Below, one piece after another: positions 5,747-19,519 of a DNA stretch of 63,199 nt. Made by a program: the position numbers and the translations under genes. Source of the stretch: Candidatus Uhrbacteria bacterium (GTDB lineage: Bacteria; Patescibacteriota; Patescibacteriia; UBA9934; GWF2-40-263). The notes under the pieces are model-generated. The model saw only the letters and a program-made list of their open reading frames with translations. It did no database searches and was not told the origin of the DNA. The stretch spans positions 1 through 63,199 of the forward strand of contig JACRJU010000001.1 of assembly GCA_016219925.1 (NCBI GenBank), read 5' to 3'. Numbering within the stretch: position 1 is the stretch's first letter; the number at the start of each line of letters is the position of its first letter.

Positions 5747-7099
5747 TCAGGGATTTAATCGATGCATCATGCGTGGAAATGGAATCGTCTCTCGAACGTG
5801 GTGCAAGCCGCACACCCAAGCGACGATGCGCTCGAGTCCATACCCGAAGCCAGAGTGTGGAACCGACCCGTATCGGCGTAAATCCAAATACCATTCAAAT
5901 GGCTCAAGCGGGAGATGATGCTCTCTCATGCGCTCGATAATCACAGACAAATCGTCCTCACGCTGGGAACCTCCGATGATCTCCCCATAACCCTCCGGCG
6001 CAAGCACATCGTTGTTGAGCACACGATCCGGTTCACGGGGATCGCGCTTCATATAAAACGCTTTCACTTCCGCCGGGTACTTCTCGAGAAAAATCGGCCG
6101 GTCATACTGCTCTGTCAAAAGCGTTTCGTCATCAGCTCCCAAATCATCACGTTCGCCGATGTCTGATCCGAGCGCGCGTAACGCAACGACGGCCTGCGCA
6201 TGGGTCAAATGGACAAACGGCGCTTGGACTTTTTTAAGCGGCTCGATATCACGCTCCAAAACCTTGAGCTCGTACGCATTTTTCTCAAGCACGTCTTTTA
6301 CGATTCGGACAATCAAGCCTTCTTGAATCTGCATATTGCCTTCGTGTTCCACAAAAGCGGCCTCGGCATCCATCATCCAAAACTCGGTGAGGTGTCGGCG
6401 GGTTTTTGATTTCTCCGCGCGAAAGACCGGGCCGAAATCAAAACAACGTCCAAAAGACATGATCCCAGCCTCCAAATAAAGCTGGCCGGATTGCGCGAGA
6501 TAGGCCTTGGTTCCCCCATCTTCTCCCTCTCCAAAATAATCCATCTCGAACAATTCCGTCGTACCTTCGCAAGACGTGGGTGTGAGAATGGGCGTATCAA
6601 ATTTGATAAAACCGTTCTCGTTGAAATAGGCGTAAGTCGCGTTGATGATCGTGTTGCGCACGCGCTGGATAGCCCACTGGCTTTCTGCACGCAACCACAA
6701 GTGCCGCTGATCAAGCAGGAAATCTGGACCATGGTCTTTCTTGCCGATCGGATAATCCTCCTGCGCAAGCTGGATCATTTCAAATGTCATCCCCTCCAGT
6801 TCAAAGCCGGTGGGGGAACGATCGTCCTGCTTCACGCGTCCACGCACACGCACGGATGATTCCAGTCGAAGCGACTGAAGGGCCTCCCATTGAACCTGAT
6901 CCATTTCGCCTTTTGAATACACAACTTGCACTTTGCCGGATCCATCACGCAACTGTAAAAAGAAAATTTTTCCGCTGGAACGGAAATTATATGCCCATCC
7001 TTTAAGTTCTACCTCTTCTCCGACGTGCGGAGCGATCGAAGCGATTGTAATCATAGGCGGGACCGTGAGGTTGGTCTGTCTCCGGGCCAACGGACTCAT
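5747..7099 (-). CDS. asnS: asparaginyl-tRNA synthetase
   Basis: Contains LAQSGQLYLEAG, FRAEKSKTRRHLTEFWMMDAE, APEGYGEIIGGSQRE and FGYGLERIVAW...IPFPR. Start at 7099 is preceded by GGAGGG. A start at 7054 (MITIASI) matches homolog N-termini, and the ORF is open to 7180. Confidence 0.9.
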   Translation of the reverse strand: MSPLARRQTNLTVPPMITIASIAPHVGEEVELKGWAYNFRSSGKIFFLQLRDGSGKVQVVYSKGEMDQVQWEALQSLRLESSVRVRGRVKQDDRSPTGFELEGMTFEMIQLAQEDYPIGKKDHGPDFLLDQRHLWLRAESQWAIQRVRNTIINATYAYFNENGFIKFDTPILTPTSCEGTTELFEMDYFGEGEDGGTKAYLAQSGQLYLEAGIMSFGRCFDFGPVFRAEKSKTRRHLTEFWMMDAEAAFVEHEGNMQIQEGLIVRIVKDVLEKNAYELKVLERDIEPLKKVQAPFVHLTHAQAVVALRALGSDIGERDDLGADDETLLTEQYDRPIFLEKYPAEVKAFYMKRDPREPDRVLNNDVLAPEGYGEIIGGSQREDDLSVIIERMREHHLPLEPFEWYLDLRRYGSVPHSGFGYGLERIVAWVCGLHHVRETIPFPRMMHRLNP

Positions 7100-7210
7100 C
7101 GCCGTTGTTCCCTCCGACAGACCAACCTCACAGTCATCTGAATCAGACGGCCTCTCTATCTTCCCTAAAGCCAAAGGCATTGAACTTGACTTTAGCGTAT
7201 TTCCGCCTCG

Positions 7211-7966
7211 CTAGGCAAGGGATGGGCTGATACAGGCGGCGCGAATGGAAACCGAGGGAATAACAGGAAAATGGCAAATGAGATACGACTCCAACACCTC
7301 GTGAAACCATACGATCTGTTCAGCCGCAAGCGTCGGACGCGTTTGATTTGAAAACGACTCTTGAGAGGCGAAGCGCAAAAGTTTGAGGGTGGCATCATCT
7401 ATGCGGCGCGCGCTGAACCACTGTTCCTGATCGCGCACAACGCACGAAGCACAGACCACCCCGCCCTTGAGTGCGTGCCAATAAAAATTTCCAGCCGCGA
7501 TCGCTTCCCGACAAGATAAACACTGCGTTAACTCCGGCCGATACCCACTGATTGCCATAAGCTTGAGCAAAAATGAACCAAGAAGAAACGCGCTTCGCTC
7601 GTCGCTTGGCGATGCGCTCGTTTCGATAAAATCGAGCCAAGAAAGAATGAGCTTATACAAAATAGGATCGCGTTCATGCGGGCGAGTGGCAAGATCAACA
7701 AGGGAGAGGCTGTTTTGCGCGAGCAGAAGTTTTTGAAGATCGTTGAAAATGTGCGGGAACGATCGGCGCCGTTCAACTCCGGCAACGGTTTGAAAAACCC
7801 GTCCTGAAACGAGGAGAAGTTCAACCTCGGCCACGGCCTCCAAATGAGGCGTGAGTTTCGCAAGTGGCTTGTGGCCGCCGCGCGCCAAAAATTCGATCTT
7901 ACCGTGTGTGGGCGTCAGAACCGAATAAAAACGATCGGCTTCGCGAAAGTCGCGCCGTGAGAGCAC
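7211..7966 (-). CDS. recO: DNA repair protein RecO
   Basis: LSRRDFREADRFYSVLTPTHGKIEFLARGGHKPLAKL matches the RecO OB-fold N-terminus, and a Cys-rich Zn motif (CLSC...CASC) is present. The first canonical start is GTG at 7966, but RecO-like residues (TLYSTTGL) continue upstream in frame. Confidence 0.85.
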   Translation of the reverse strand: MLSRRDFREADRFYSVLTPTHGKIEFLARGGHKPLAKLTPHLEAVAEVELLLVSGRVFQTVAGVERRRSFPHIFNDLQKLLLAQNSLSLVDLATRPHERDPILYKLILSWLDFIETSASPSDERSAFLLGSFLLKLMAISGYRPELTQCLSCREAIAAGNFYWHALKGGVVCASCVVRDQEQWFSARRIDDATLKLLRFASQESFSNQTRPTLAAEQIVWFHEVLESYLICHFPVIPSVSIRAACISPSLA

Positions 7967-7992
7967 GAGACCAGTTGTGGAATATAAAGTCG

Positions 7993-8385
7993 CTATAGGT
8001 GATCGATATAACTTTGCACAATCAGCATGGCGGCGAGCGCATCTTCTTGCGCTGGTGATCCTTCTTCGCGTTGCAAGCGGATGCTTTCGGAGGTGGTATA
8101 GGATTCGTCTTCTTCAACGACAGGAATGGATACCGCGCTTGAAAGCGCTTTGATGAACGCGCGGGTCTTTTCAAGTTGTACGGAAGAATAAGGCCCCCCG
8201 GTCGCAAGCGGAACACCAACAACGATTACATCAATGTCTTCAACGCTCGCACGCTTGACGAATATCCGGATCGTCTCTTCGCCCGCATTGGGAACCACCT
8301 CAAGCGGTACAGCCACATGCGCCTCGCTATCCCCAAACGCGAGCCCAATTTTTTTATCGCCAAAATCAATGCCGAGGATGCGCAT
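7993..8385 (-). CDS. ruvX: Holliday junction resolvase-like protein RuvX/YqgF
   Basis: MRILGIDFGDKKIGLAFGD N-terminus; 130 aa. Confidence 0.9.
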   Translation of the reverse strand: MRILGIDFGDKKIGLAFGDSEAHVAVPLEVVPNAGEETIRIFVKRASVEDIDVIVVGVPLATGGPYSSVQLEKTRAFIKALSSAVSIPVVEEDESYTTSESIRLQREEGSPAQEDALAAMLIVQSYIDHL

Positions 8386-10861
8386 ACGCTTCTTTTATTC
8401 GCTCCGTCAATCTTTTCAATCCTTTCTCTGCAAACGCCCCCGGGTTGGAGATCGGTGTCACGGACGGATACGCCGCCTGTGCCACCGTTTGCAAATTCAC
8501 ATCATCTTCCGGTCCAATAAGAAATAAATCAATGGGAATCCCCATCTCCTGCAATCGTTTGGTTGATTGTTTCACCGCACGGGGGTTGTCCGAATCTCCA
8601 TCGGCAGTGGCAATCACAAAACGTCGTGTTTTCCATCCGTGCTTTTGCAAGGCCGGCTTTTGCTTTCGCATCTCATCCTGTTCGCGCAGAGAAACGGCGA
8701 TCTGTTTTTCAATCAGCGCGAGCGCGGCATGATCCGGCGTTGATCCGCCCGCTCCCGCATCCAAAGCACGATAAAGGATCAACTGTTCTTTTGGCCCCCA
8801 ATTTTCCGTTAGAGGAAGAACGATCTCTGTTTCTGCCCCAAGCACAACCACGCTAATCTTAACCGGCATGGGCGCCTTGAGTTTGTGCTGGGACTTTCGT
8901 GCCGTCACCGAGGCGTTCATGCACGAATCAACGAGCAAAAATACCATATCGCGCTGGGCATCAACTTTTTTCACTCCGCCAAGCGTCTCATCCATAGACC
9001 CGCTCATGTCAGCCGACACATAAACCTCATACCCGCCGAACCATTTTTCTTTTTTCCGATCCGTTTCCTCCCGCTTGCCGATCAACGGATCTTTTTCTCC
9101 AGCCAGGATTTCAATATAGCCGGATACAAGTTCGTCTGGATCGATTTCGTCCATTTTGCTCATTTGCACCGGTCCGCGATCAACAATCGCTTCACGGACA
9201 TTTTCACGCACAAGCGTCTGCCACTGACGATCCGCATCCAAAAGAACGCGCGCATACTTTTTGCGAAGCGTCGCGATCTTTTCCAGCACCTCTCGCGCCT
9301 GCTCGGGCGTGCACTCGGCCTCGCGCGCGTAGCGCAAAATGGGATCCTCTTCCTCCTTTTGTTTTAATTCCTCTTGCTCCAACTCCTCAAGTTTCTTATC
9401 CAATGCTTCCTGACTCATGAGCTCGGCCTCCTGCGCCCCATAATCCCCCTCGCCTAAATCTTCCTGTTGCTCTTCTTGATCGACATTTGGATCACCCGCA
9501 GGCGTAGCGTCAAGCCGCACCCACTCGTGTGAACCCGTATCCCAAGCAAACGCCCATGCATGGCGATTGCTCTCAAGTAACAAGGCCTCGCCCGCCTTTG
9601 ACTTTGTGCGCACACTGTGCCCGCCGGCAAACCGCGCGTGCAAACCAAGTTTCGTCAACAGTCGAACGAGGAGCGTATTCGATTCATCGCATTTGGCCTT
9701 TTTGTGTTCCCAAATTTTTTCAAAATACGCGGACGAATCCGCTTTATAAACACCTTCCCACTGAGGATCCTGATCATACTCAAGATGTTTGTGAATGATC
9801 GAAGCGATGCGGCGTGTTTTGATGCCGTCTGAAACATTTTGCGACATCACTTCCTGTGCCGCCTCGAGAAGCTCCGGCGGAAAACGGTCGTTAACTTCTT
9901 CGATCGTTTCATCCGGCGGCGCAAGATCAATCGCATCCGCTGAAGGAGCAATCACAACCGAAAACGTACCCGATGTTTCATCGCCAACGCGCACGCGCAC
10001 AATGCCGTCCTGATCGCTCTCAACAACCGCGTTATCAAACCCCTGAAAACTCGCGACATCCACTCCCCACCTGCGCGGCAGTTTCACTTTTCCGTGACCA
10101 TTTTGCACGCGCGAGCGGTACACGCGTTTGCGCGACACCTCAAGCGATTGGCTCTCCACCTCTTGAAATTGCCGTGGAGATTTTTTCCAGGTGAGCGTTG
10201 CGGGATCATAACGATCATACACATCATCCATCACATACCCTCCCTGAAACGGCGCGATGGTTGCCACCGCCTCGTCCGACAAGCCCTCGCCCTGTTCCTG
10301 CTGTGGCCCGCGGTGTGGGGAGTATTCGTCTTCGTTATTCTCACCGGTCACGTCCGTGCCATCGGCCTTCTCGGTTGATTCAACCGCCTTCTGCACGAGC
10401 CGTCTGTCACGCGAGCGCAAAAATTCCAAGCGCGGCAGGAGCTTGTTCTGAACATAATTCGCTTTAATATCAAAGCCAATATCCGAGTCGGCAAGTGCGG
10501 CAAAAAGGTTTACTGACCCATCGCCGACTTTCATTTTCTGAAGCCCCGCAAGATGTCTTTGGACGATTGGATCTAATCCAAACTCGTTTGCGTCCGCTTG
10601 AGGATCATGAAGCAAACGCCGCATCCCATCAAAAAAATCCCGTTCGCTTGGAAGCGCGTCGCGATCCACTCGAACGGATCGTCCAAGCAGATGTCCCTCC
10701 ACGAGCGAACGCACATCCGCTGGGATCGTCTGTTTCCATTCTTTGTATCCGCGCAGATGTTCTTTAGAAACAACAACATCCGGAGCAGTCTCCTGTTCTG
10801 TTTTGGTTTCCGTTTTAATGCCGAGCGCCTCCAGCGGCACCTGTTGTTCAGGAGTAGGCAT
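8366..10861 (-). CDS. large multidomain protein with a transglutaminase-like cysteine protease core and a C-terminal vWA domain
   Basis: 831 aa. The Cys-His-Asp core is KCDESNTLLVRLL ... NRHAWAFAW ... WVRLDATP. An acidic coiled-coil linker follows. The vWA MIDAS motif is VYVSADMSGSMDE (DxSxS). Confidence 0.7.
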   Translation of the reverse strand: MPTPEQQVPLEALGIKTETKTEQETAPDVVVSKEHLRGYKEWKQTIPADVRSLVEGHLLGRSVRVDRDALPSERDFFDGMRRLLHDPQADANEFGLDPIVQRHLAGLQKMKVGDGSVNLFAALADSDIGFDIKANYVQNKLLPRLEFLRSRDRRLVQKAVESTEKADGTDVTGENNEDEYSPHRGPQQEQGEGLSDEAVATIAPFQGGYVMDDVYDRYDPATLTWKKSPRQFQEVESQSLEVSRKRVYRSRVQNGHGKVKLPRRWGVDVASFQGFDNAVVESDQDGIVRVRVGDETSGTFSVVIAPSADAIDLAPPDETIEEVNDRFPPELLEAAQEVMSQNVSDGIKTRRIASIIHKHLEYDQDPQWEGVYKADSSAYFEKIWEHKKAKCDESNTLLVRLLTKLGLHARFAGGHSVRTKSKAGEALLLESNRHAWAFAWDTGSHEWVRLDATPAGDPNVDQEEQQEDLGEGDYGAQEAELMSQEALDKKLEELEQEELKQKEEEDPILRYAREAECTPEQAREVLEKIATLRKKYARVLLDADRQWQTLVRENVREAIVDRGPVQMSKMDEIDPDELVSGYIEILAGEKDPLIGKREETDRKKEKWFGGYEVYVSADMSGSMDETLGGVKKVDAQRDMVFLLVDSCMNASVTARKSQHKLKAPMPVKISVVVLGAETEIVLPLTENWGPKEQLILYRALDAGAGGSTPDHAALALIEKQIAVSLREQDEMRKQKPALQKHGWKTRRFVIATADGDSDNPRAVKQSTKRLQEMGIPIDLFLIGPEDDVNLQTVAQAAYPSVTPISNPGAFAEKGLKRLTERIKEAYAHPRH

Positions 10862-10912
10862 ATCACTTCTGAAATCTTAGCAAAACTCGATAAGATTTGC
10901 GTAGAAATCTAC

Positions 10913-12040
10913 TTAGAGAACAAAATTCAAATAATTTTCCGGATGAATCACATCAAAAGTTGCGTGCGGGTACGCATCCTGAAATACACCTGGAACACGT
11001 GTTTTCTTTTGAGATGCCCATTTGAATTCGTAAGCGCGCACTTGCCCTTCCCCTTCCTCTATCAAATCAATCTCCTGACCTTCATAAGTGCGCCAAAAAT
11101 ACGGTGTTGCAAAGATACTCTGATAAGAACGTTTTTTCAATCGTTCTATGAATAAGAAATTTTCCCATAGTTCGCCAACATCAGACCGCTGAGTGAGATC
11201 ATTAAATTGAGAAATGATAGCGTTACGAAGTCCAGTGTCATAAAAATAATACTTGCTTTTTCTCACGACTTCACTTCGCAAGTTTCGACTGAATCCTCCA
11301 ACGCGAATAACCACAAAGGCTTTTTCAAGCAGATCGAGATAACGTTGAACCGTCTTGACTGAAAGCCCAAGCTGACGCGCTAACTCTTGATAAGAGACTT
11401 CTTTTCCGATCTGAAACGCAAGCAGTTTCAAAAGATCCAATAGATACTTTGAGCTCTTAATTTTCTCGAGTGCGAGAATATCTTTTAGAAGATACGCCTC
11501 TGAAAGTTCTGTTAATAGTTCTCGTTTTTGCACTTTGGTTTGTGCAGTTAATATCTCCGGATAACTTCCAAATACCAACAAATCCGGTACATGTTCTTTG
11601 AGTTCAAATTGATTCTGCTCAAAATTTAACTCAATCTGTGAAACCGGAAAAAGGGTGAGGGTTCGTTTCCTCCCTGTGAGTGGCTCACCGATTTGGTTTG
11701 AGAGTTCAAAAGATGATGAACCAGTGGCAATGACCCTTATATCCGGTCTTTGATCAACAATGATCTTCAATCCTGTTCCGATGTTTGGTATCTGTTGTGC
11801 TTCATCAATAACAAAAAGATCGTAACCTTCCAGGTATGAAAGAATCGTCGGAAAATCTTGTGATGATAGAATTTGGCGTGTACGAATGTTATCTCCGGAG
11901 TCAAATTTATACTTAAATTTTGTCTGTTTTAAGTAGGCATTTATTATCGTTGTCTTCCCAACACGTCTTGGACCATAAATAACAAGAACACGACCTGGTA
12001 GCAAAAACTGCTCAAAATCTTGATAAATGCGTTGAATCAT
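10913..12040 (-). CDS. AAA-type ATPase (AAA_14/DUF4143-like)
   Basis: 375 aa with Walker A GPRRVGKTT and Walker B LFVIDEAQ, plus a C-terminal DUF4143-like region. AT-rich, about 37% GC on a 60-nt hand count. Confidence 0.75.
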   Translation of the reverse strand: MIQRIYQDFEQFLLPGRVLVIYGPRRVGKTTIINAYLKQTKFKYKFDSGDNIRTRQILSSQDFPTILSYLEGYDLFVIDEAQQIPNIGTGLKIIVDQRPDIRVIATGSSSFELSNQIGEPLTGRKRTLTLFPVSQIELNFEQNQFELKEHVPDLLVFGSYPEILTAQTKVQKRELLTELSEAYLLKDILALEKIKSSKYLLDLLKLLAFQIGKEVSYQELARQLGLSVKTVQRYLDLLEKAFVVIRVGGFSRNLRSEVVRKSKYYFYDTGLRNAIISQFNDLTQRSDVGELWENFLFIERLKKRSYQSIFATPYFWRTYEGQEIDLIEEGEGQVRAYEFKWASQKKTRVPGVFQDAYPHATFDVIHPENYLNFVL

Positions 12041-12048
12041 ACTTAAAC

Positions 12049-12077
12049 ATGGTATCGTAAATCCACATTTTTGTCAA
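12049..12077 (-). promoter_or_regulatory. sigma70-like promoter for the AAA ATPase gene, giving a near-leaderless transcript
   Basis: Minus strand reads TTGACA (12077-12072), a 17-nt spacer, then TACCAT (12054-12049). The -10 element ends 8 nt before the ATG at 12040 and there is no SD. Confidence 0.4.
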
Positions 12078-12100
12078 AATTTATGGATTATGGATTGCGC

Positions 12101-12228
12101 CGGGAGAGCACGAGACGCACGCCCAGATTGTCATTGCGATTGTCTCGATGATCCTTGTCAACGTTCGCGGCTCCACCGTTGTCGCGGTTACCGCCATTGA
12201 GACCATTGCGGTGGCCGTCGTCGTGCGC
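12101..12228 (-). repeat. DGR template repeat (TR)
   Basis: 128 bp aligned without gaps to 13891-14018 (offset 1790). All 18 mismatches are T on the plus strand here, which is A on the coding minus strand. In the VR frame it encodes 8 Asn (AAC/AAT) codons. It is non-coding, with an in-frame stop upstream. Confidence 0.9.
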
Positions 12229-12441
12229 TCCCTGTGTGCGTGGCCAAATATTCCACCAAACGACGACGCATCATCGCTTTGCCTTTCTTCGCCTCGCGCA
12301 CCGCAATCTTCAACATCCATTTGCAAGCGCACGCGATATTGAATCGCTTCTCGCCACACAAACGGACAGGGGTAAACGGCGCAAAAGCAGTCGAAACCAC
12401 TCATGCGTTCTCTAGCCGACCGACTTTATCGTACCCTATAA

Positions 12442-13410
12442 TCACAATAAAAAACAAAAAGACTGAAGGAGCCGCTTATCAAGCTCACGCCTGGCGGTTC
12501 CTATGAGCAGTCCATTGTAACTCGCCAAAGTATCGTGGCTATGGATATGCCGCATCATCCTTTGTCGCGTGGACGGCCGTAAAACCTGATGATCAGAAAA
12601 TAAAACATGACCAAGCCAATCTATTCCCCACGAAGTTTTACGAATAATGATTTTTTTAGGATGTAGTCGCAACTTTAATTTATTTTCCAAACACGACGCG
12701 ATCGGTACAATCAGATCAGTTGCGTCTTTTTTTGTCTGGCAAATCGCAAGGAAATCATCGGCATAACGAACATAATGTCTCAACTTCAAATCGTGCTTTA
12801 TGTGACGGTCGAGTTCATGCAAATACACGTTTGCAAACAGCTGGCTCGTGAGGTTCCCAATAGGAAGACCTCGTCCGGCTTGTGTCGAATAACTTTCAAT
12901 AATCACCTTTAACAAAGCGGATAATCGGCAATCATAGACGTTTCGTGATAAAAGCGAAAAAAGGATAGTGTGATCAACAGAGTCAAAAAATTTCTGTACA
13001 TCACATTTGAGAACCCAGCACTCGCGCGACCAATTTTTTGTTGCCTGCCTCAAAGCTCTGTGAACAGCATGGATGGATCTGTGCTGACCCAAACCCGGAC
13101 GGCAGGAGAATGAACAATCGAGCCAGCGACAATGAAAAGCCGGAAAAAGCGTATTGTAAACAAGACGGTGCACAATTCTATCGCGAACGGCGGCTTTATG
13201 GATCACTCGACGTTTCGGATCATGTACAATAAAGCGACTGTAACTTTCATGAACGTAAGAACCCGTAGAAAGGTCACGCCAAATCGAAATTAATTCGTCT
13301 TCAAGATTCGCGGCAAAAAACTGAACATCTTGTTTTTTCATCTTGCCTTTGCTGAAATCTAACCACGCTTGATAAACATTTTCTATCTTAATTATGTCTT
13401 CAAAACACAT
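12442..13410 (-). CDS. DGR reverse transcriptase
   Basis: 322 aa. RT motifs are DVQKFFDSVDH, LPIGNLTSQLFANVYL (the DGR-specific I/LGxxxSQ signature) and YVRYADDFL. Confidence 0.9.
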   Translation of the reverse strand: MCFEDIIKIENVYQAWLDFSKGKMKKQDVQFFAANLEDELISIWRDLSTGSYVHESYSRFIVHDPKRRVIHKAAVRDRIVHRLVYNTLFPAFHCRWLDCSFSCRPGLGQHRSIHAVHRALRQATKNWSRECWVLKCDVQKFFDSVDHTILFSLLSRNVYDCRLSALLKVIIESYSTQAGRGLPIGNLTSQLFANVYLHELDRHIKHDLKLRHYVRYADDFLAICQTKKDATDLIVPIASCLENKLKLRLHPKKIIIRKTSWGIDWLGHVLFSDHQVLRPSTRQRMMRHIHSHDTLASYNGLLIGTARRELDKRLLQSFCFLL

Positions 13411-13439
13411 ACATCAACAAACATTCATCGAGAACTTAC

Positions 13440-13850
13440 GTGAACTGTCCAGTAACACGCCCCCCCCCCGCTACGGACAAATTATCCGCTATCCCGATCA
13501 TTCATGAGCTCGGTTGTCTTTATCTCATCCTCCACAACGCGATTCGTGATTTTCAAAAGCTTGAGCGATTCACGCTTGGCACGATGATTGAAAAGATACT
13601 GCTTGAATGTATCAAAAACTGTTTTATTTCTACCATGGCTCCACCAGAACAAAAGTTCGATGAACTCATTCACGCGTCTGCGCTGTTTGATACTTTAAAA
13701 CTTTACATCAGAATCGCGGTGAATGTTCACTGCTTAGAACAGAAAACGTACATCAAACTCATCCCGCGTTTAGGAGAAATCGGACGTATGCTTGGTGGTT
13801 GGTTGCAAAAAACAAAATCACTAAATCCAAACACAAGTTCCAAATCTTAA
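13440..13850 (+). CDS. avd: Avd-like accessory protein (four-helix-bundle / 23S rRNA-IVS protein family)
   Basis: 136 aa from a GTG start and predicted all-helical. LYLILHNAIRDFQKLERFTLGTMIEKILLECIKN and a C-terminal IGRMLGGWLQ resemble Avd/four-helix-bundle proteins. It sits between the target and the RT but on the opposite strand. Confidence 0.6.
   Translation: MNCPVTRPPPATDKLSAIPIIHELGCLYLILHNAIRDFQKLERFTLGTMIEKILLECIKNCFISTMAPPEQKFDELIHASALFDTLKLYIRIAVNVHCLEQKTYIKLIPRLGEIGRMLGGWLQKTKSLNPNTSSKS
13460..13469 (+). repeat. C10 homopolymer at the 5' end of the Avd-like gene
   Basis: Ten consecutive C. Losing one C would fuse an upstream ATG ORF (13394) to the Avd-like frame. Confidence 0.9.
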
Positions 13851-13877
13851 TCCAAATTCGATCTCCGATTCCAAATC

Positions 13878-16838
13878 TCATGAAGATTTACGGGAGAGCA
13901 CGAGACGCACGCCCAGATTGTCATAGCGAGCGGCTCGAGGATCCCTGCCAACGCGCGCGGCTCCACCGTCGCCGCGGGAACCGCCAATGAGACCACGGCG
14001 GCGGCCGTCGCCGTGCGCGTAGTAGCCGTCAAAATGAGTCCAGAGGTTTTTGTTGCCGTAGGATTGGGTCTTTGCCGCTCTTGCGTACTCATCATAGCGC
14101 ATGAGACGCAGTTCAAAGTCATCAGGGTTTTGATTGGTGTTTTTAAGAAGTTCTGTGATGACTGCTTTGGCTTGTTGAGATTGGAAACGTTGATCATGAT
14201 TGGTCCAAAGAGCAATGTTTATTCCGTTTCGGGTGATATTTGTGGGGTCTTGGGTGTTAAAGAGGGTTTGAAGAATCTTCTTGGTCTGTGGAGTGAGAGC
14301 CGATTGTTTTTCTTGGTCGTTGGTGTAATCAAATTCAGGGTAATCCATGGCAAGAAGAAAAGCATCTGTGCCGAAGTCTGGGATGTGCTCTTTGGCAATC
14401 TTGAGAAAATCTAGGTCATCATTGTCAATCGTCTGTGCCAGGCGATGCTCCGTAAGAGCTTGAAAGAACCACATGGACTTCTCTGGAATGTTTGGAAGGT
14501 CAGGACAGTTTGTGTTCCATTTGTCTTGAAGAGCTGTTTTGTTTACTTTCCACTTCTCTGTTGTAAGGACCGCGGGCGGAGTCGTTGTGGAGTCAGGATC
14601 TCTATCGCCGATGTTGTAATGAGTGACAAAAGCAGAGTCGCGGTTGTACACGGCCATGAAGATCTCTTGAGCTTTCTCGTGCTTTTCAATCTTGAGTTCA
14701 GAGAAGCCGTATTCTTTTGCTTTGGCTTTGTCGTAGGCAAAGGGAGTGCGGGATTCAGCGTATGCGCCCGGTTCTGGAGTTGGAGGGAGATCAAGATCAT
14801 AAAAATCTCTTAATCTTTCCGGGTCAAAAAAGCTTGGAATGTCATCTTTGGCAACTAAAATGGCTTTGGTCTTGTCCACGGCTTTGGCTGTTTCATCATA
14901 GAGGAATCCCAGAAAGATTCCTTGTTCCGGCATGGTCGCGGGAGCCGTGTCTTTACGCTTGAGGGACATTCCAGGGTCCCAACCGTCCTTGAGTGGCCGT
15001 TTGACGTACTGAAACACGACATCACCCGTGTTTGGATCTAAGAAATCAGTGGCTCGTAAAAGAGGTGGAGGTTCTTTGGCGCGTGGGCGCTCCACATTGG
15101 GATTGAGATAGCCCACGTCTTTTGGAGTCAAAACTCTCGCTCTGGGCTTGCTGACTTCATCAAGATTGAGTTGAGTGGCAAGGATATTGAAAACTTCAAA
15201 GTACTTTCTCACAAGGGTCTGTTCTTCTTGGGGGAATTGTGAGAGGTACTTTTCAAGTTTCGCTTTGAAGAACACGGCAAGGTGCTCTTTGCGGTCGCGT
15301 GGAGAAGCTTTATATTGGTCAATCCAAGAGAGCACAACGCCGGGGTCCAAAATAAAGGAAGAAAGATGAAACTCGGCTTTGGGTTTGGAGGGGTCTTTCT
15401 TATGAAGAACGGTGTCTTGGTGAGAGAATGCTTTAAAGAGTTCTCCCCAAGCCTGTGCAAATCGGTAAAGATACCCCCCGTGTGTGGGGTCTTCATCAAG
15501 ATGGGATTGACCGGTGGCGCCGTCTTTAATCCAAGCCGGTTCTAGCTCATTTGGGGTGACAGCGGTGAGCCGTCCGGTCTTTTGGTCCATGAGGGCGGCG
15601 AGCATCACTTGATACAACTCCGGGTTGTCTTTTGTCTGTTCAAGGTATTCAACATTGATGACGTTTCCGGCAAATTCACGCTTGGTCTCAATACCTGTTT
15701 CCTCTCGGTCGTAGCGTTCAGATGGTGGATTGCCTGCGGCAAGGTAGAGGAACCCCGGTTCAACCGTAACGGTAAGCGGGGTGCCGGGAATAGTCACTTT
15801 ACGTCCGGCTCTGGCTTCTGAAACAAATTTGAGAATCTGTCTTTGAACAGAGGTGGGGCGGGTGTTAAACTCATCGTCAAAAAAGATGCCACCGCCTTTG
15901 GATGGCTGGTCGTCAATGGAAGAGGACTTGCCGGTCATGGCTCGAAGAAGAGGACCGTACTCGTAATAAGTCTTCCCTTCTTGAATGGCCGGGCTTGCGA
16001 GCAAACGCACAAATTTCTCTTGGTCGCCTCCCACCGTGCGTTCTGGCTCTCTTGAGGCGAGCTCCAAAGATGCGGCGCGGGCAAGAGCTGTCTTTCCGGT
16101 ACCGGTTTCCCCCATCATGGCGGCAACCGGACGAGAGGTCAGGGCTCCTTGGAGGACTTCTTGAAGGAGTCTTTGGCGTGACTTAGTCCAAATAAAACCC
16201 GTAGTACGCAGTTGGTCTGCGTAAGATTTTACGGTGTCATATTCAATGAGCGCGGCAACATCGGGATTCTTGTGTTTGATGGCTTCGAGTCTTTGTTCAA
16301 GGTCTTCGACTTTGGATTCGAGAAGCGAACGCTTCATCAGATGCACTGGCTTGGGTTCTTGACCTGAACGTTTGAACATCTCGGAGAGCAGTGCGATGAG
16401 CTTTCCGCGTTCATCATCAAGCTGTTGCTCCAAGGACTTGAACTCTTCGTAGGAGCCGTTCACTTCTTCATTTTCTCTCTCGTGCCGCTTGAGCTCTGAC
16501 CCAAGGGTTTGGGAGACATCGGGATCTTTAAGGAGTCGACGGTATACGGCAAGCGAAAAAGCATAAGATTCATCTTGCTCAAAAATATCTAACAAATCTT
16601 CTCTTTTGACCCGACGTAAATCCTCTTGCAACTGCCGACGTAGAGCATAGGCCCATTCCACTCTCTGCGCTTTGTTTGTGTCTCCATGATCAAATTGTGT
16701 CAAGTAAGCGCTCGCCATCTCTTCGACCTCCTTAGGAACCCCGAGATAATCGACCGGAAGACCCATGATGGTTGAAAAATCATACGCGGGTCGAGCTTCT
16801 TTTGGTTGTTCATGGATTCCTGATGGACGTTCGGACAT
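13878..16838 (-). CDS. DGR target protein: AAA_5/MoxR-like ATPase fused to a C-terminal variable C-type-lectin/FGE-like module
   Basis: 986 aa with Walker A MMGETGTGKT, Walker B GGIFFDDEFN and sensor-like AAGNPP. The C-terminus WTHFDGYYAHGDG...GGSRG...YDNLGVRLVLS carries the VR. Confidence 0.85.
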   Translation of the reverse strand: MSERPSGIHEQPKEARPAYDFSTIMGLPVDYLGVPKEVEEMASAYLTQFDHGDTNKAQRVEWAYALRRQLQEDLRRVKREDLLDIFEQDESYAFSLAVYRRLLKDPDVSQTLGSELKRHERENEEVNGSYEEFKSLEQQLDDERGKLIALLSEMFKRSGQEPKPVHLMKRSLLESKVEDLEQRLEAIKHKNPDVAALIEYDTVKSYADQLRTTGFIWTKSRQRLLQEVLQGALTSRPVAAMMGETGTGKTALARAASLELASREPERTVGGDQEKFVRLLASPAIQEGKTYYEYGPLLRAMTGKSSSIDDQPSKGGGIFFDDEFNTRPTSVQRQILKFVSEARAGRKVTIPGTPLTVTVEPGFLYLAAGNPPSERYDREETGIETKREFAGNVINVEYLEQTKDNPELYQVMLAALMDQKTGRLTAVTPNELEPAWIKDGATGQSHLDEDPTHGGYLYRFAQAWGELFKAFSHQDTVLHKKDPSKPKAEFHLSSFILDPGVVLSWIDQYKASPRDRKEHLAVFFKAKLEKYLSQFPQEEQTLVRKYFEVFNILATQLNLDEVSKPRARVLTPKDVGYLNPNVERPRAKEPPPLLRATDFLDPNTGDVVFQYVKRPLKDGWDPGMSLKRKDTAPATMPEQGIFLGFLYDETAKAVDKTKAILVAKDDIPSFFDPERLRDFYDLDLPPTPEPGAYAESRTPFAYDKAKAKEYGFSELKIEKHEKAQEIFMAVYNRDSAFVTHYNIGDRDPDSTTTPPAVLTTEKWKVNKTALQDKWNTNCPDLPNIPEKSMWFFQALTEHRLAQTIDNDDLDFLKIAKEHIPDFGTDAFLLAMDYPEFDYTNDQEKQSALTPQTKKILQTLFNTQDPTNITRNGINIALWTNHDQRFQSQQAKAVITELLKNTNQNPDDFELRLMRYDEYARAAKTQSYGNKNLWTHFDGYYAHGDGRRRGLIGGSRGDGGAARVGRDPRAARYDNLGVRLVLSRKSS
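13891..14018 (-). repeat. DGR variable repeat (VR) with IMH-like invariant 3' end
   Basis: Forms the last 128 nt of the coding sequence of the 986-aa target (stop at 13878). 14 codons differ from TR. The 34 bp at 13891-13924 are identical to TR 12101-12134. Confidence 0.9.
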
Positions 16839-16869: not shown

Positions 16870-17649
16870 TTATACAGGCAATGGCGTCAAAATCTCCACT
16901 CCCGCTTTGGTCACCGCTATTGTCACCTCGAAGTGCGCGCCAACGGAACGATCCTTCATCACAATGCACCAACCATCCTCCCCGGTTTCCACTTCGTGAC
17001 GGCCGCCAAGTCCAAGCATGGGCTCGAGCGCGAGGCACATGCCATCTTGAATTTCTACGCGGGGGTACTGATCGGAAACAAAATTCGGCACATGCGGAGA
17101 CTCGTGCACGGCATGCCCGACCCCGTGTCCCACCAGCGCGCGCACGATGCCATATCCGTACGGCTTCACAGACGACTCGATCGCCGCGCTGATATCTTTT
17201 ATAGTCCCGCCTACACGTGCCGCCTTCACTCCTTCCAAAAGCGAGGCACGCGTTACCTCCATAAGTTTGGCGTGCTCGGGATCCGCTTTCCCTACCGCAA
17301 CCGTTGTCGCCATGTCGGTGCACAGACCCTTGTACCAGCACCCGATGTCTAAACCAACGATATCGCCCTCTTTGAGAGCGGTGTCTCTGTTCCCAAGACC
17401 GTGCACGATCTCTTCGTTGACGGAGATGCACAGCGTGCTCGGAAACGGCATATCTTCAGGATGCGAACGATAGCCTTTAAAGGAAGGCGTCCCGCCGCCA
17501 TCTAAAATCACCTGCTCCCCGGCCACGTTCACTTGTGCGATTGTTGCACCAACCGTTACGGCATCCATGGCGGCTTTCAGAGCGCGCGAGAGAAGGTGCC
17601 CGCCTTCGCGCATTGCAGAAATTTCGTCTGGTGTTTTGATGAGAGCCAT
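16870..17649 (-). CDS. map: methionine aminopeptidase type I
   Basis: 259 aa with MALIKTPDEISAMREGG, DIVGLDIG and HGVGHAVHE metal-ligand motifs. Lies downstream of adk as in the spc cluster. Confidence 0.92.
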   Translation of the reverse strand: MALIKTPDEISAMREGGHLLSRALKAAMDAVTVGATIAQVNVAGEQVILDGGGTPSFKGYRSHPEDMPFPSTLCISVNEEIVHGLGNRDTALKEGDIVGLDIGCWYKGLCTDMATTVAVGKADPEHAKLMEVTRASLLEGVKAARVGGTIKDISAAIESSVKPYGYGIVRALVGHGVGHAVHESPHVPNFVSDQYPRVEIQDGMCLALEPMLGLGGRHEVETGEDGWCIVMKDRSVGAHFEVTIAVTKAGVEILTPLPV

Positions 17650-18394: not shown

Positions 18395-19519
18395 TCATGC
18401 GACGCGCAGGCGAGCCATGCGCGCGCGGTACTGCGGTGGAACGCGATCGCCACGCGCAAGCTCCGAGGACGGGAAGAGCTTGATCCGTGCGAGCTCGACG
18501 GACTCGAAGTCGCCGGCGTAGATCGGCGGGTACTGCAGAAGCGTCTGTGCGGTCGCGAAGTGGCCAAGCGGACGCATCACCCAACGGGTGGCGAAATGAA
18601 CGAAGAGGTTGGAGCTGACTCGAATGGGCCGTTCGCCGCGAGCGACGATCGCCGCGGCATCGGCAAGCGCCTCCGGAGTTCCCAGCACCTCGTGCTTGCC
18701 CGCGAAGAAGCGGCCGCCCGTCACCCACTCGAGCGACTTGCCGGCCTGGGCGAGCAGGCACCCGTCTGGAACCTCGACCAGGAACGGTTGTCCATCGAGC
18801 GTCCAGCAAACCAGAGCGCGTATGTTCGTCTGGCCGTGCACGGTGATCGCGTTGAAGTCGTAGTGCAGGCCTGCGAGCACCTGACCAAGCTGAACCGTTG
18901 CGAAGTTGCTCCCGGTCGGCCCCAAGATGTGCGGACCGCCCTCGAGCATCCGAGACAATGTGCAGCGCTTGAGTCCCATGCCGATCGAGATGATCTGCAT
19001 GATGTCGTAGGCGGCCGCGAGCATGCACCCGCCCCATGTGTTGAGCGGGCCCGCGATGTGTGCGAACCGTTCGGGGATCTTGGCGCGGGTGTTGACGTTG
19101 GGCCACGGGGTGTTCGTCGGACGGACCCCGAGCGCCCACATAAACCGCGCCTTGAGGTCAGGGCGACCAGCCACAGTCAACGGACGATGCTCGGAAGGCA
19201 GGGTCGCCACCCACGCGGAGTGATCGAGCGGAAGTTCGGTGCCAGGCGGGGTCATCCCGAACTGGTAGCCGACGTCCTTTCCATCGAGCGCCGCCTGCTC
19301 CTGCGGTGAAGCGCCATGAATACCGATCATGGTGCGCCGGAAGTTCTCCTGAATCCGGGACGTGACGCGCGCGTCCCGCAGGCAGATGACCCCGAGGCGT
19401 GCGAACGCTCCCGTAACCTCGACCAGCTCGCGCTCGGTCATCTGGCCGGCTCGAAACCGATCCAGATCTACGACCGGAATTTCCGGCCGCGTGTATCGCA
19501 GGGGAAAGGGTGTCTCCAT
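18395..19519 (-). CDS. 2-oxoglutarate/Fe(II)-dependent oxygenase (isopenicillin N synthase-like)
   Basis: 374 aa with an HxD...H facial triad (GLHYDFNAITVHG ... FFAGKHEV) and an RxS motif (PIRVSSNLF). Strong SD: GGAGGA then 4 nt then ATG. About 68-70% GC on hand-counted 60-nt samples. Confidence 0.7.
   Translation of the reverse strand: METPFPLRYTRPEIPVVDLDRFRAGQMTERELVEVTGAFARLGVICLRDARVTSRIQENFRRTMIGIHGASPQEQAALDGKDVGYQFGMTPPGTELPLDHSAWVATLPSEHRPLTVAGRPDLKARFMWALGVRPTNTPWPNVNTRAKIPERFAHIAGPLNTWGGCMLAAAYDIMQIISIGMGLKRCTLSRMLEGGPHILGPTGSNFATVQLGQVLAGLHYDFNAITVHGQTNIRALVCWTLDGQPFLVEVPDGCLLAQAGKSLEWVTGGRFFAGKHEVLGTPEALADAAAIVARGERPIRVSSNLFVHFATRWVMRPLGHFATAQTLLQYPPIYAGDFESVELARIKLFPSSELARGDRVPPQYRARMARLRVA

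Follow-up and report, generated by a model that had tools for sequence, protein, structure and literature searches.

A chromosomal diversity-generating retroelement, very probably functional, at the C-terminal end of a MoxR-class AAA+ ATPase gene in an Uhrbacteria-like bacterium

Introduction

Diversity-generating retroelements (DGRs) are, to our knowledge, the sole natural system of targeted protein hypermutation in prokaryotes, and candidate phyla radiation bacteria (CPR, or Patescibacteria), which are especially rich in them, were reportedly first found to carry DGRs by Paul et al. in 2017. Here we analyse a DGR on a 63,199-nt stretch of DNA from Candidatus Uhrbacteria bacterium (assembly GCA_016219925.1, contig JACRJU010000001.1, positions 1 to 63,199), which we call the window. 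On its coding strand, the minus strand of the contig, ribosomal-protein genes are followed by secY, adk, map, the gene of a 986-aa ATPase that is the target of the DGR, a reversed avd gene, a reverse transcriptase (RT) gene, a spacer and the template repeat (TR); past the TR come a DUF4143 ATPase, an 831-aa transglutaminase-like protein, here called the partner, and recO (Table 1). The element is a complete chromosomal DGR of an ultra-small, Uhrbacteria-like CPR bacterium and very probably functional; what it rewrites is the end of a MoxR-class AAA+ ATPase, namely its final 43 codons, the stretch that forms the variable repeat (VR). Other loci are labelled L001-L016, L024, L038 and so on, and the layout (avd)-RT-TR is referred to as type I.

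Table 1. Features of the element and of its surroundings in the window
Feature	Coordinates	Strand	Description
TR	12101..12228	-	128 nt, non-coding; 30 adenines, 8 AAY codons in the VR frame
VR	13891..14018	-	codons 941-983 of the target (986 aa); departs from the TR by 18 substitutions in 14 codons
Adenine-free 27-nt 3' block of the VR	13891..13917	-	TCTGGGCGTGCGTCTCGTGCTCTCCCG; IMH-like invariant end; same sequence in the TR at 12101-12127
DGR reverse transcriptase, 322 aa	12442..13410	-	RVT_1; IGNLTSQLFANVY at aa 184-196, YADD at aa 216-219
avd (accessory variability determinant), 136 aa	13440..13850	+	head-to-head with the RT; PF22296 bAvd 55.5 bits, cutoff 40
Target gene, 986 aa	13878..16838	-	long helical N-terminus, MoxR-class AAA+ module, middle region, C-terminal VR domain
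RT-TR spacer, 213 nt, non-coding	12229..12441	-	conserved, structured; candidate cis-acting part of the DGR RNA
TTTGGA-type short periodic repeat	13821..13890	-	directly 3' of the VR; runs over the target stop and, in antisense, over the 3' end of avd
C10 homopolymer	13460..13469	+	avd codons 7-10, encodes PPP; in frame with the GTG start (ON)
Partner gene, 831 aa	8366..10861	-	Transglut_core E 7e-8; C-terminal VWA-like region; DxSxS (MIDAS-like)
DUF4143/AAA_14 ATPase with HTH domain	10913-12040	-	PADLOC phage-defence candidate PDC-S01, E 7e-147
374-aa ORF	18395-19519	-	weak 2OG-Fe(II) oxygenase match, E 0.004; between secY and adk; highest-GC stretch (0.57)

The two repeats differ at template adenines only

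A repeat search recovers a single direct repeat of 128 nt, ungapped, with an offset of 1790 nt and 86% identity, whose copies differ at 18 sites, as a first-pass annotation of this DNA had aligned them. Read on the minus strand, the TR base is A at every one of these mismatches and the VR base is G (9), C (6) or T (3); the adenine-only divergence claimed at that time thus holds on realignment, with zero non-adenine mismatches, and the probability that 18 random mismatches would all hit the 30 adenines present in 128 nt is 2.3e-14. All 18 substitutions fall at codon position 1 (6) or 2 (12) and change 14 codons, the VR lying in frame at the end of the 986-aa open reading frame (ORF) where it had been placed. 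The adenines of the TR are distributed 9/19/2 over positions 1/2/3 of the VR frame, and because 28 of the 30 stand at positions 1 and 2, up to 21 codons of the VR could be recoded, giving at most about 3.5e16 proteins, with a stop possible at one codon only.

In the VR frame the TR translates to AHDDGHRNGLNGGNRDNGGAANVDKDHRDNRNDNLGVRLVLS, and this frame is closed by stops upstream of the TR, at distances of 14 and 27 codons, which bears out the earlier description of a non-coding TR with eight Asn codons behind an in-frame stop. One of the counts had to be corrected: 28 template adenines had been given for the variable part, whereas we find 30 in the whole TR, 26 of them as far as the last mismatch and 4 within the terminal 34 nt, so that the substituted fraction is 18/26 or 18/30. 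No third copy of the repeat was found in the window, even with all adenines wild-carded and 3 mismatches allowed.

Those final 34 nt are the same in TR and VR, and divergence starts right past them; their identity had been taken as what an initiation of mutagenic homing (IMH) block should show. The identity of the two copies stands, but the truly invariant part is the GC-rich end of 27 nt, which cannot vary because there is no adenine in it, while the adenines just 5' of this end, inside the 34-nt stretch, are mutated in relatives.

Two further candidates at the TR were set aside. A pairing of the 5' edge of the TR with its 3' end is 85% formed, but we do not claim it, since its covariation stays at chance level (67 of 500 shuffles equal it) and coding constrains these bases too. 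A 107-aa ORF running across TR and spacer (12081-12404) is treated as spurious because it has no family match and the indels of the relatives are not multiples of three (for example, 26 nt in L012).

The reverse transcriptase is of the DGR type and is flanked by an avd gene

The ORF between the repeats matches RVT_1 (E 5e-21) and encodes an intact RT of 322 aa with all motifs present. Among all solved structures, 8ub7, an RT of 328 aa, matches it best (E 2.9e-38, 135 bits); 8ub7 bears IGSLTSQLFANVY and YMDD (the longer motif stretch is given as IPIGSLTSQLFANVY) and has the motif IG(N/S)LTSQLFANVY in common with the RT of the window. The depositors named it 'Reverse transcriptase' and nothing more; from its length and its motifs we take it to be bRT of the Bordetella phage. 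This score is about double that of the other solved RTs, which reach at most 67 bits when they come from group II introns and 65 bits when they are retron-type. With the NCBIfam models the RT scores 137 bits for TIGR04416 (cutoff 300) and 58 for the retron model (cutoff 235). All its matches to NCBIfam and PADLOC models for group II introns, Drt and retrons stay under threshold, those from NCBIfam by a wide margin. Rfam detected no group II intron or retron non-coding RNA (ncRNA) at gathering thresholds across the window, nor at E up to 1 around the cassette. Judged by bit scores against solved structures, by family-model scores and by motifs, the RT belongs to the DGR type and not to group II introns or retrons, in agreement with the first assignment from IGNLTSQLFANVY and YADD.

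The gene on the opposite strand, described at first as Avd-like, encodes a protein that scores above the Pfam gathering score for the bAvd family (Table 1); with NCBIfam NF033474 (DivGenRetAVD) it reaches 53.8 bits, under the cutoff of 80.

Relatives keep the cassette, and one pair differs in the VR alone

A metagenome scan with an alignment of the RT found more than 567 relatives, from Uhrbacteria/Patescibacteria metagenome-assembled genomes (MAGs) and groundwater metagenomes, and 80 loci were retrieved for layout counts; wherever TR/VR pairs were detected in these 80 loci, they were adenine-biased. The avd gene is reversed and directly upstream of the RT in 53/53 loci with both avd and TR detected. 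The TR lies upstream of avd, giving TR-(avd)-RT, in 45 loci, and 212-263 nt downstream of the RT in 8 loci (five distinct); in our own sample the TR-downstream layout is confined to the subclade of the window, with RTs at least 55% identical. In the window itself, the distance from the RT stop to the TR is 213 nt and not 214 nt as first stated.

The same layout is found in the same chromosomal slot, between map and the partner, in five distinct relatives. In L003, L005/L006, L008 and L012 target, avd (-), RT (+), TR and then the partner follow one another, and the mismatches between TR and VR fall at adenine sites in 12/13 cases in L003, 16/18 in L005, 23/23 in L008 and 12/12 in L012. Moreover, L012 (an NCBI MAG) and L016 (a contig of a JGI metagenome) align over 9979 nt with 18 differences, all of them inside the 131-nt VR at TR-adenine positions and zero elsewhere, a single apparent non-adenine exception being an artefact of a BLAST gap pair. 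The RT of this element is 55% identical to that of the window, with which it shares layout and target family. Because the two copies differ in the VR alone, and there at TR adenines, this type of cassette is active in nature.

Other relatives depart from this state. At L005 (11166-12125), and also at L006, the RT has an in-frame stop after YADD (AQM*KFL), seen in two samples, and the VR of L005 shows 16 adenine and 2 non-adenine mismatches relative to its TR; L005/L006 may be a decaying DGR. In L001 and L009 target and partner are present, and neither an RT nor an avd nor a TR lies close to them.

The target is a MoxR-class ATPase paired with a transglutaminase-like protein

The target matches AAA_5 at aa 241-377 (E 3e-7), with a Walker A motif GETGTGKT at aa 243-250 and FFDDE at aa 319, and has no transmembrane (TM)-like segment, its maximum Kyte-Doolittle hydropathy over 19 residues, KD(19), being 1.09. 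The full-length AlphaFold model has a predicted local distance difference test score (pLDDT) of 80, with 76-94 at the C-terminus, and its top Foldseek matches are NorQ, CbbQ and McrB (probability 1.0 and E 4e-4 to 5e-3 for NorQ/CbbQ); against a viral library, MoxR- and CobS-like matches were obtained. Both NorQ and CbbQ belong to the MoxR class of ATPases and work on VWA partners.

Homologs of the target (n=40, identity from 69% down to 25%) come from sources named Candidatus Uhrbacteria or Patescibacteria, and in their alignment the variable columns are the TR-adenine codons, held in a conserved VR-domain scaffold, YELRLxRYDEYARAA...NLWTHFDGYY...GL.GG.R..GGA..V....R......L.VRLVLSRK. Its fold was sought in several ways. 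Foldseek of the full-length model against the PDB gave AAA+ matches only, with no C-type lectin (CLec) or formylglycine-generating enzyme (FGE) match, and the viral library likewise gave no CLec/FGE match; a model of the C-terminus alone is poor in the VR (pLDDT 28-47) and has no PDB fold matches; and no CLec/FGE match came from a hidden Markov model (HMM) profile against PDB sequences or from permissive Pfam scans of 16 C-terminal fragments. As a lead only, ELRLxRxDEYxRAA and LxVRLVLSR in the VR domain are similar to RLPTEAEWEYAAR and GFRxV, motifs of FGE-type CLec domains.

The target family is modular. The homolog P0002 carries two tandem C-terminal VR modules (alignment A1), and P0013 and P0015 have a second, different VR-like C-terminal module ending LGVSLSR, as in the TR-(avd)-RT loci L010 and L011. 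L010 contains two targets with identical VRs (6937-7049 and 10691-10803), and L009 contains two target paralogs (5989-8937 and 10259-13270) and no cassette.

In all relatives the partner gene comes directly after either target or cassette in the gene order. The last 249 aa of its product match VWA_2 (E 0.012) and VWA (E 0.021), both below cutoff, and the residues of its DxSxS motif (D618, S620, S622), which resembles a metal ion-dependent adhesion site (MIDAS), are invariant in 6 homologs; sequence and profile searches against the PDB gave nothing useful for it. The partner has no TM-like segment, and there is no signal peptide-like segment in either protein. Neither the target nor the partner has a PADLOC match, and the pair has no recognised effector domain (TIR, nuclease, caspase-like), only the transglutaminase-like core.

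Candidate regulatory elements accompany the repeats and avd

The spacer between RT and TR shows conservation across loci with an RT identity of 55-76% (counterparts at L003:12497-12710, L005:12124-12326, L008:6139-6350 and L012:11321-11564), and it is unlikely to be coding because its indels are not multiples of three. RNAalifold predicts a structure of 68 pairs, including a long 3' hairpin, in which 90% of the cells are paired, versus 78% in shuffles and 30-45% in slid controls, and in which 29 pairs show compensatory changes, versus 12 in shuffles and 4-7 in slid controls; since five distinct sequences underlie the alignment, the structure is provisional. The spacer matches no Rfam family, and searches with its 3' hairpin as a covariance model and with its full length as an nhmmer profile recovered the five type-I loci only and none of the TR-(avd)-RT loci. 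A hairpin past the TR of the window, seen when a Bordetella-like spacer RNA was looked for there, coincides in part with a 10/12 promoter-like site of the next gene and is not counted for that reason. In most TR-(avd)-RT loci, a clean stem-loop of 9-12 bp judged by eye lies 10-20 nt past the TR (for example L024:4111-4180, L038:4090-4159, L010:11105-11174); it would fit either the Avd-binding stem-loop of other DGRs or a bidirectional terminator that serves avd as well.

Since TR and VR end in the same 3' block, donor and recipient must be told apart by the sequence past it, and past the VR this sequence has a distinctive composition. The 70 nt past the VR contain 4.6 TTG, versus 1.6 past TRs and 1.5 in random sequence (48 non-redundant VRs; p 2e-26), with a spacing that peaks at 7-8 nt and with units that are TTTGGA in the subclade of the window and YCTTGA or CCTTTG in TR-(avd)-RT loci. 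The repeat stands right behind every VR of this CPR DGR family; it tracks the VR, not avd, and is missing after TRs; it is a candidate for a VR-specific element that distinguishes the recipient from the donor. A repeat of this type is kept after one of the target paralogs of the cassette-free locus L009 (8938-9010).

The C10 tract near the start of avd is the sole G/C run of at least 8 nt in the 63-kb window. Tracts of C9-C12 stand at the equivalent position in 25/71 avd genes of the RT family, in both layouts (among others in L003, L005, L006, L010, L011, L012, L015, L016 and L024), and they make up most of the 37 such runs across 651 kb of loci. In 12 of these 25 genes an in-frame start lies upstream of the tract, with N-termini of the kind M...PPP...IPIIHELG; the other 13 have no in-frame start upstream, nor between the tract and the conserved Avd core. 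The near-identical loci L003 and L015 read G12 and G10, a change that makes up 2 of the 4 differences between them over 4990 nt, L005 and L006, near-identical as well, read G11 and G9, and a short-read assembly of the window's own strain stops precisely at the tract. Although homopolymer lengths in assemblies are error-prone, the tract is a candidate switch for phase variation of Avd by slipped-strand mispairing. A literature search found no paper connecting DGRs with homopolymer tracts of this kind.

Neighbouring genes

In the window the DUF4143 ATPase lies between TR and partner, whereas L003 has it upstream of its target and L009 has three copies around its two targets; as its position and number differ among relatives, it appears variable or mobile and would stand outside the DGR. 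The 374-aa ORF looks inserted into a conserved operon, since secY directly precedes adk in the relatives. At L001, whose target has no cassette, a gene of the 23S_rRNA_IVP family (an Avd-like four-helix bundle) lies between two aspartyl-tRNA-synthetase-like genes (17127-17492).

Discussion

The element described here is best placed among the known DGRs of CPR bacteria, because an AAA-ATPase target and a reversed avd have already been reported as typical of that group. CPR DGRs form an RT clade of their own, clade 2 (Roux et al. 2021, PMC8144416). According to Wu et al. (2017, PMC5758913), whose supplement lists 48 DGR architectures, the order TR-(avd)-RT is architecture B3, which makes up 90% of the CPR set, a reversed avd beside the RT is the rule, the VR class UVR4 occurs in Midasin/AAA-ATPase proteins, and ribosomal-protein genes lie inside some CPR cassettes; an AAA-ATPase with a C-terminal VR is given as the commonest CPR DGR target by Dore et al. 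(2024, PMC10907252), who cite Paul et al. 2017 for it. The window shares with these elements the reversed avd upstream of the RT, the P-loop/AAA ATPase with a C-terminal VR, and the nearby ribosomal-protein genes, but its TR lies downstream of the RT behind a structured spacer and not upstream of avd, as in B3. The gene order, which the first-pass annotation had called non-canonical, does differ from that of Bordetella; within the CPR, however, the reversed avd is usual, and the position of the TR is the one clear structural deviation.

The DGR of Bordetella phage BPP-1 (mtd-avd-TR-brt) offers the second comparison. Both systems have adenine-specific transfer, related RTs (on the reading of 8ub7 as bRT), an Avd, a VR at the 3' end of an ORF with AAY codons, template adenines placed at codon positions 1-2, and a GC-rich 3' block that does not vary. 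They differ as follows: (i) in the window avd is on the opposite strand and the TR comes after the RT; (ii) the window has no IMH/IMH* difference and no GC hairpin past the VR; (iii) its target is a cytoplasmic ATPase, whereas the Bordetella target is a phage tail fibre; (iv) in Bordetella an essential 140-nt Sp with the priming adenosine lies downstream of the TR, as described together with the cryo-EM structure of bRT-Avd (bioRxiv 10.1101/2023.10.23.563531), whereas the conserved RNA of the window is upstream of the TR and none is conserved downstream.

A third relationship, one of composition, links the locus to the 'ternary conflict systems' of multicellular bacteria, in which DGRs diversify MoxR/vWA modules, as in Thiohalocapsa PB-PSB1 (PMC10907252; Kaur et al. 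2020, PMC7159879). Here as there, a DGR is combined with a MoxR-class AAA+ ATPase and a vWA-like protein, and the diversified C-terminal domain has been proposed to be an intracellular ligand sensor. However, their VR usually belongs to the vWA protein or to a sensor of its own, with MoxR encoded by a separate gene, and in the window it is on the ATPase itself; no VMAP, peptidase or TIR effector is recognised in the window, only the transglutaminase-like core; and their RTs fall into clade 5, while the RT of the window is in the CPR clade.

How might the element work? We infer a primed reaction with an RNA intermediate, in which RT and Avd would copy an RNA containing the TR into cDNA, placing random nucleotides opposite the template adenines; the cDNA would then replace the VR, that is, the last 43 codons of the cytoplasmic ATPase, leaving the scaffold residues and the last 27 nt unchanged. 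Target and partner form a conserved pair directly after the cluster of ribosomal-protein genes, secY, adk and map, with the DGR cassette inserted between the two. By analogy with the NorQ hexamer, the MoxR-like ATPase may assemble into a ring that carries the variable C-terminal binding domains, bind a ligand through them and then act through the VWA/transglutaminase partner, as in the pairs NorQ-NorD and CbbQ-CbbO. The most likely role of the target, on this analogy and on that with the DGR-linked MoxR/vWA systems (PMC10907252), for which a like role has been proposed, would be that of an intracellular, ATP-driven sensor or remodeller of ligands whose binding specificity is reshuffled by the DGR.

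A number of observations weigh against our interpretation. Neither fold searches nor profile searches brought up a C-type-lectin fold for the VR domain. The assignment of the partner to VWA consists of sub-threshold Pfam matches and a motif. VR polymorphism was not observed at the window locus: the only other copy found is L007, a 1367-nt Logan contig found by exact look-up of the RT, which is 100% identical to the window and ends inside the TR, so that it provides no independent VR; and a search of JGI metagenomes with a TR pattern in which all adenines were wild-carded gave no match. The strain of the window occurs in SRR12113407. Downstream of the TR there is no conserved sequence or unusually stable RNA (z from +0.4 to +0.7; -1.8 in one locus), and within 60 nt past the VR no conserved GC hairpin was found in the window and four relatives. 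A GC-rich inverted repeat at that place occurs in about one third of DGRs and is not obligatory. Finally, the identical 34-nt 3' ends leave no distinction between donor and recipient within the repeat, unlike in Bordetella; identical IMH and IMH* are known in some DGRs, according to Wu et al. (PMC5758913).

Some of these points would be accounted for if the element were a fossil, that is, if past activity had left the adenine-only differences and the target were no longer mutagenised in this genome. That VR polymorphism was not seen at the window locus agrees with such a history, as do decay and loss among the relatives, where L005/L006 carry the RT stop and L001 and L009 a target that lacks RT, avd and TR in its vicinity; should the poly-C tract be a switch, its frame in many relatives is moreover OFF. 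We nevertheless consider a fossil improbable, given that the RT and avd of the window are intact, avd being in frame through its C10 tract, that no non-adenine mismatch has accumulated in 128 nt, whereas the broken-RT locus L005 has two, and that a sister element of like layout, L012/L016, is demonstrably variable. It is from the intact RT and avd, and from the complete lack of non-adenine mismatches, that we infer activity of the element in the window. Another explanation, in which an ordinary duplicated gene fragment happens to lie beside an unrelated RT (of a group II intron, a retron or a defence system) and has diverged by mutation or gene conversion, could appeal to the sub-threshold RT matches to group II intron, Drt and retron models, which are expected for any RT. 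It would have to explain an adenine-only spectrum with P ~2e-14 that is restricted to codon positions 1-2, an RT that scores double against 8ub7, an adjacent Avd gene with no group II intron or retron ncRNA, and the recurrence of the pattern in L003, L005/L006, L008 and L012, and we regard its chances as negligible.

With the DGR itself unchanged, the ATPase could be a housekeeping MoxR chaperone with a varied substrate tail, or a factor of attachment to, or interaction with, a host cell. The gene pair stands in a core syntenic place beside the ribosomal-protein operon in all relatives, CPR bacteria are episymbiotic, which suits the attachment variant, and there is neither a recognised effector domain nor a PADLOC match for target or partner; we therefore see a role of this kind as a substantial minority prospect. 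The proposal that MoxR and vWA systems with DGR-diversified sensors are conflict systems (PMC10907252) speaks against it, and a surface adhesin in particular is disfavoured, because neither a signal peptide-like nor a TM-like segment is present and an ATPase needs the cytoplasm. An intracellular ligand sensor or remodeller thus remains our preferred reading of the target.

Three details may be novel: the TR downstream of the RT behind a structured 213-nt RNA, the TTG-rich repeat past the VR and the poly-C tract in avd. It is tempting, if rather speculative, to join them into a single scheme in which the subclade has been re-wired, with an RNA of about 210 nt acting in cis 5' of the TR, the TTG repeat marking the recipient in place of IMH/IMH* differences or a GC hairpin, and the poly-C tract of avd switching hypermutation stochastically. 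We think this scheme unlikely to hold as a whole; if true, it would describe a phase-variable mutator acting on a single gene.

Taken together, the locus presents a clean, intact DGR in a fixed context of ribosomal operon, map, target, cassette and VWA/transglutaminase partner. The pairing of MoxR and VWA and the proposed sensor function are open to test, because cases for comparison exist in the cassette-free relatives, in the relative with the RT stop and in the pair of genomes that differ in the VR alone. If upheld, the roles suggested for the spacer RNA, the TTG repeat and the poly-C tract would bear on how DGRs recognise their RNA and how hypermutation is regulated, and could aid the engineering of DGRs.

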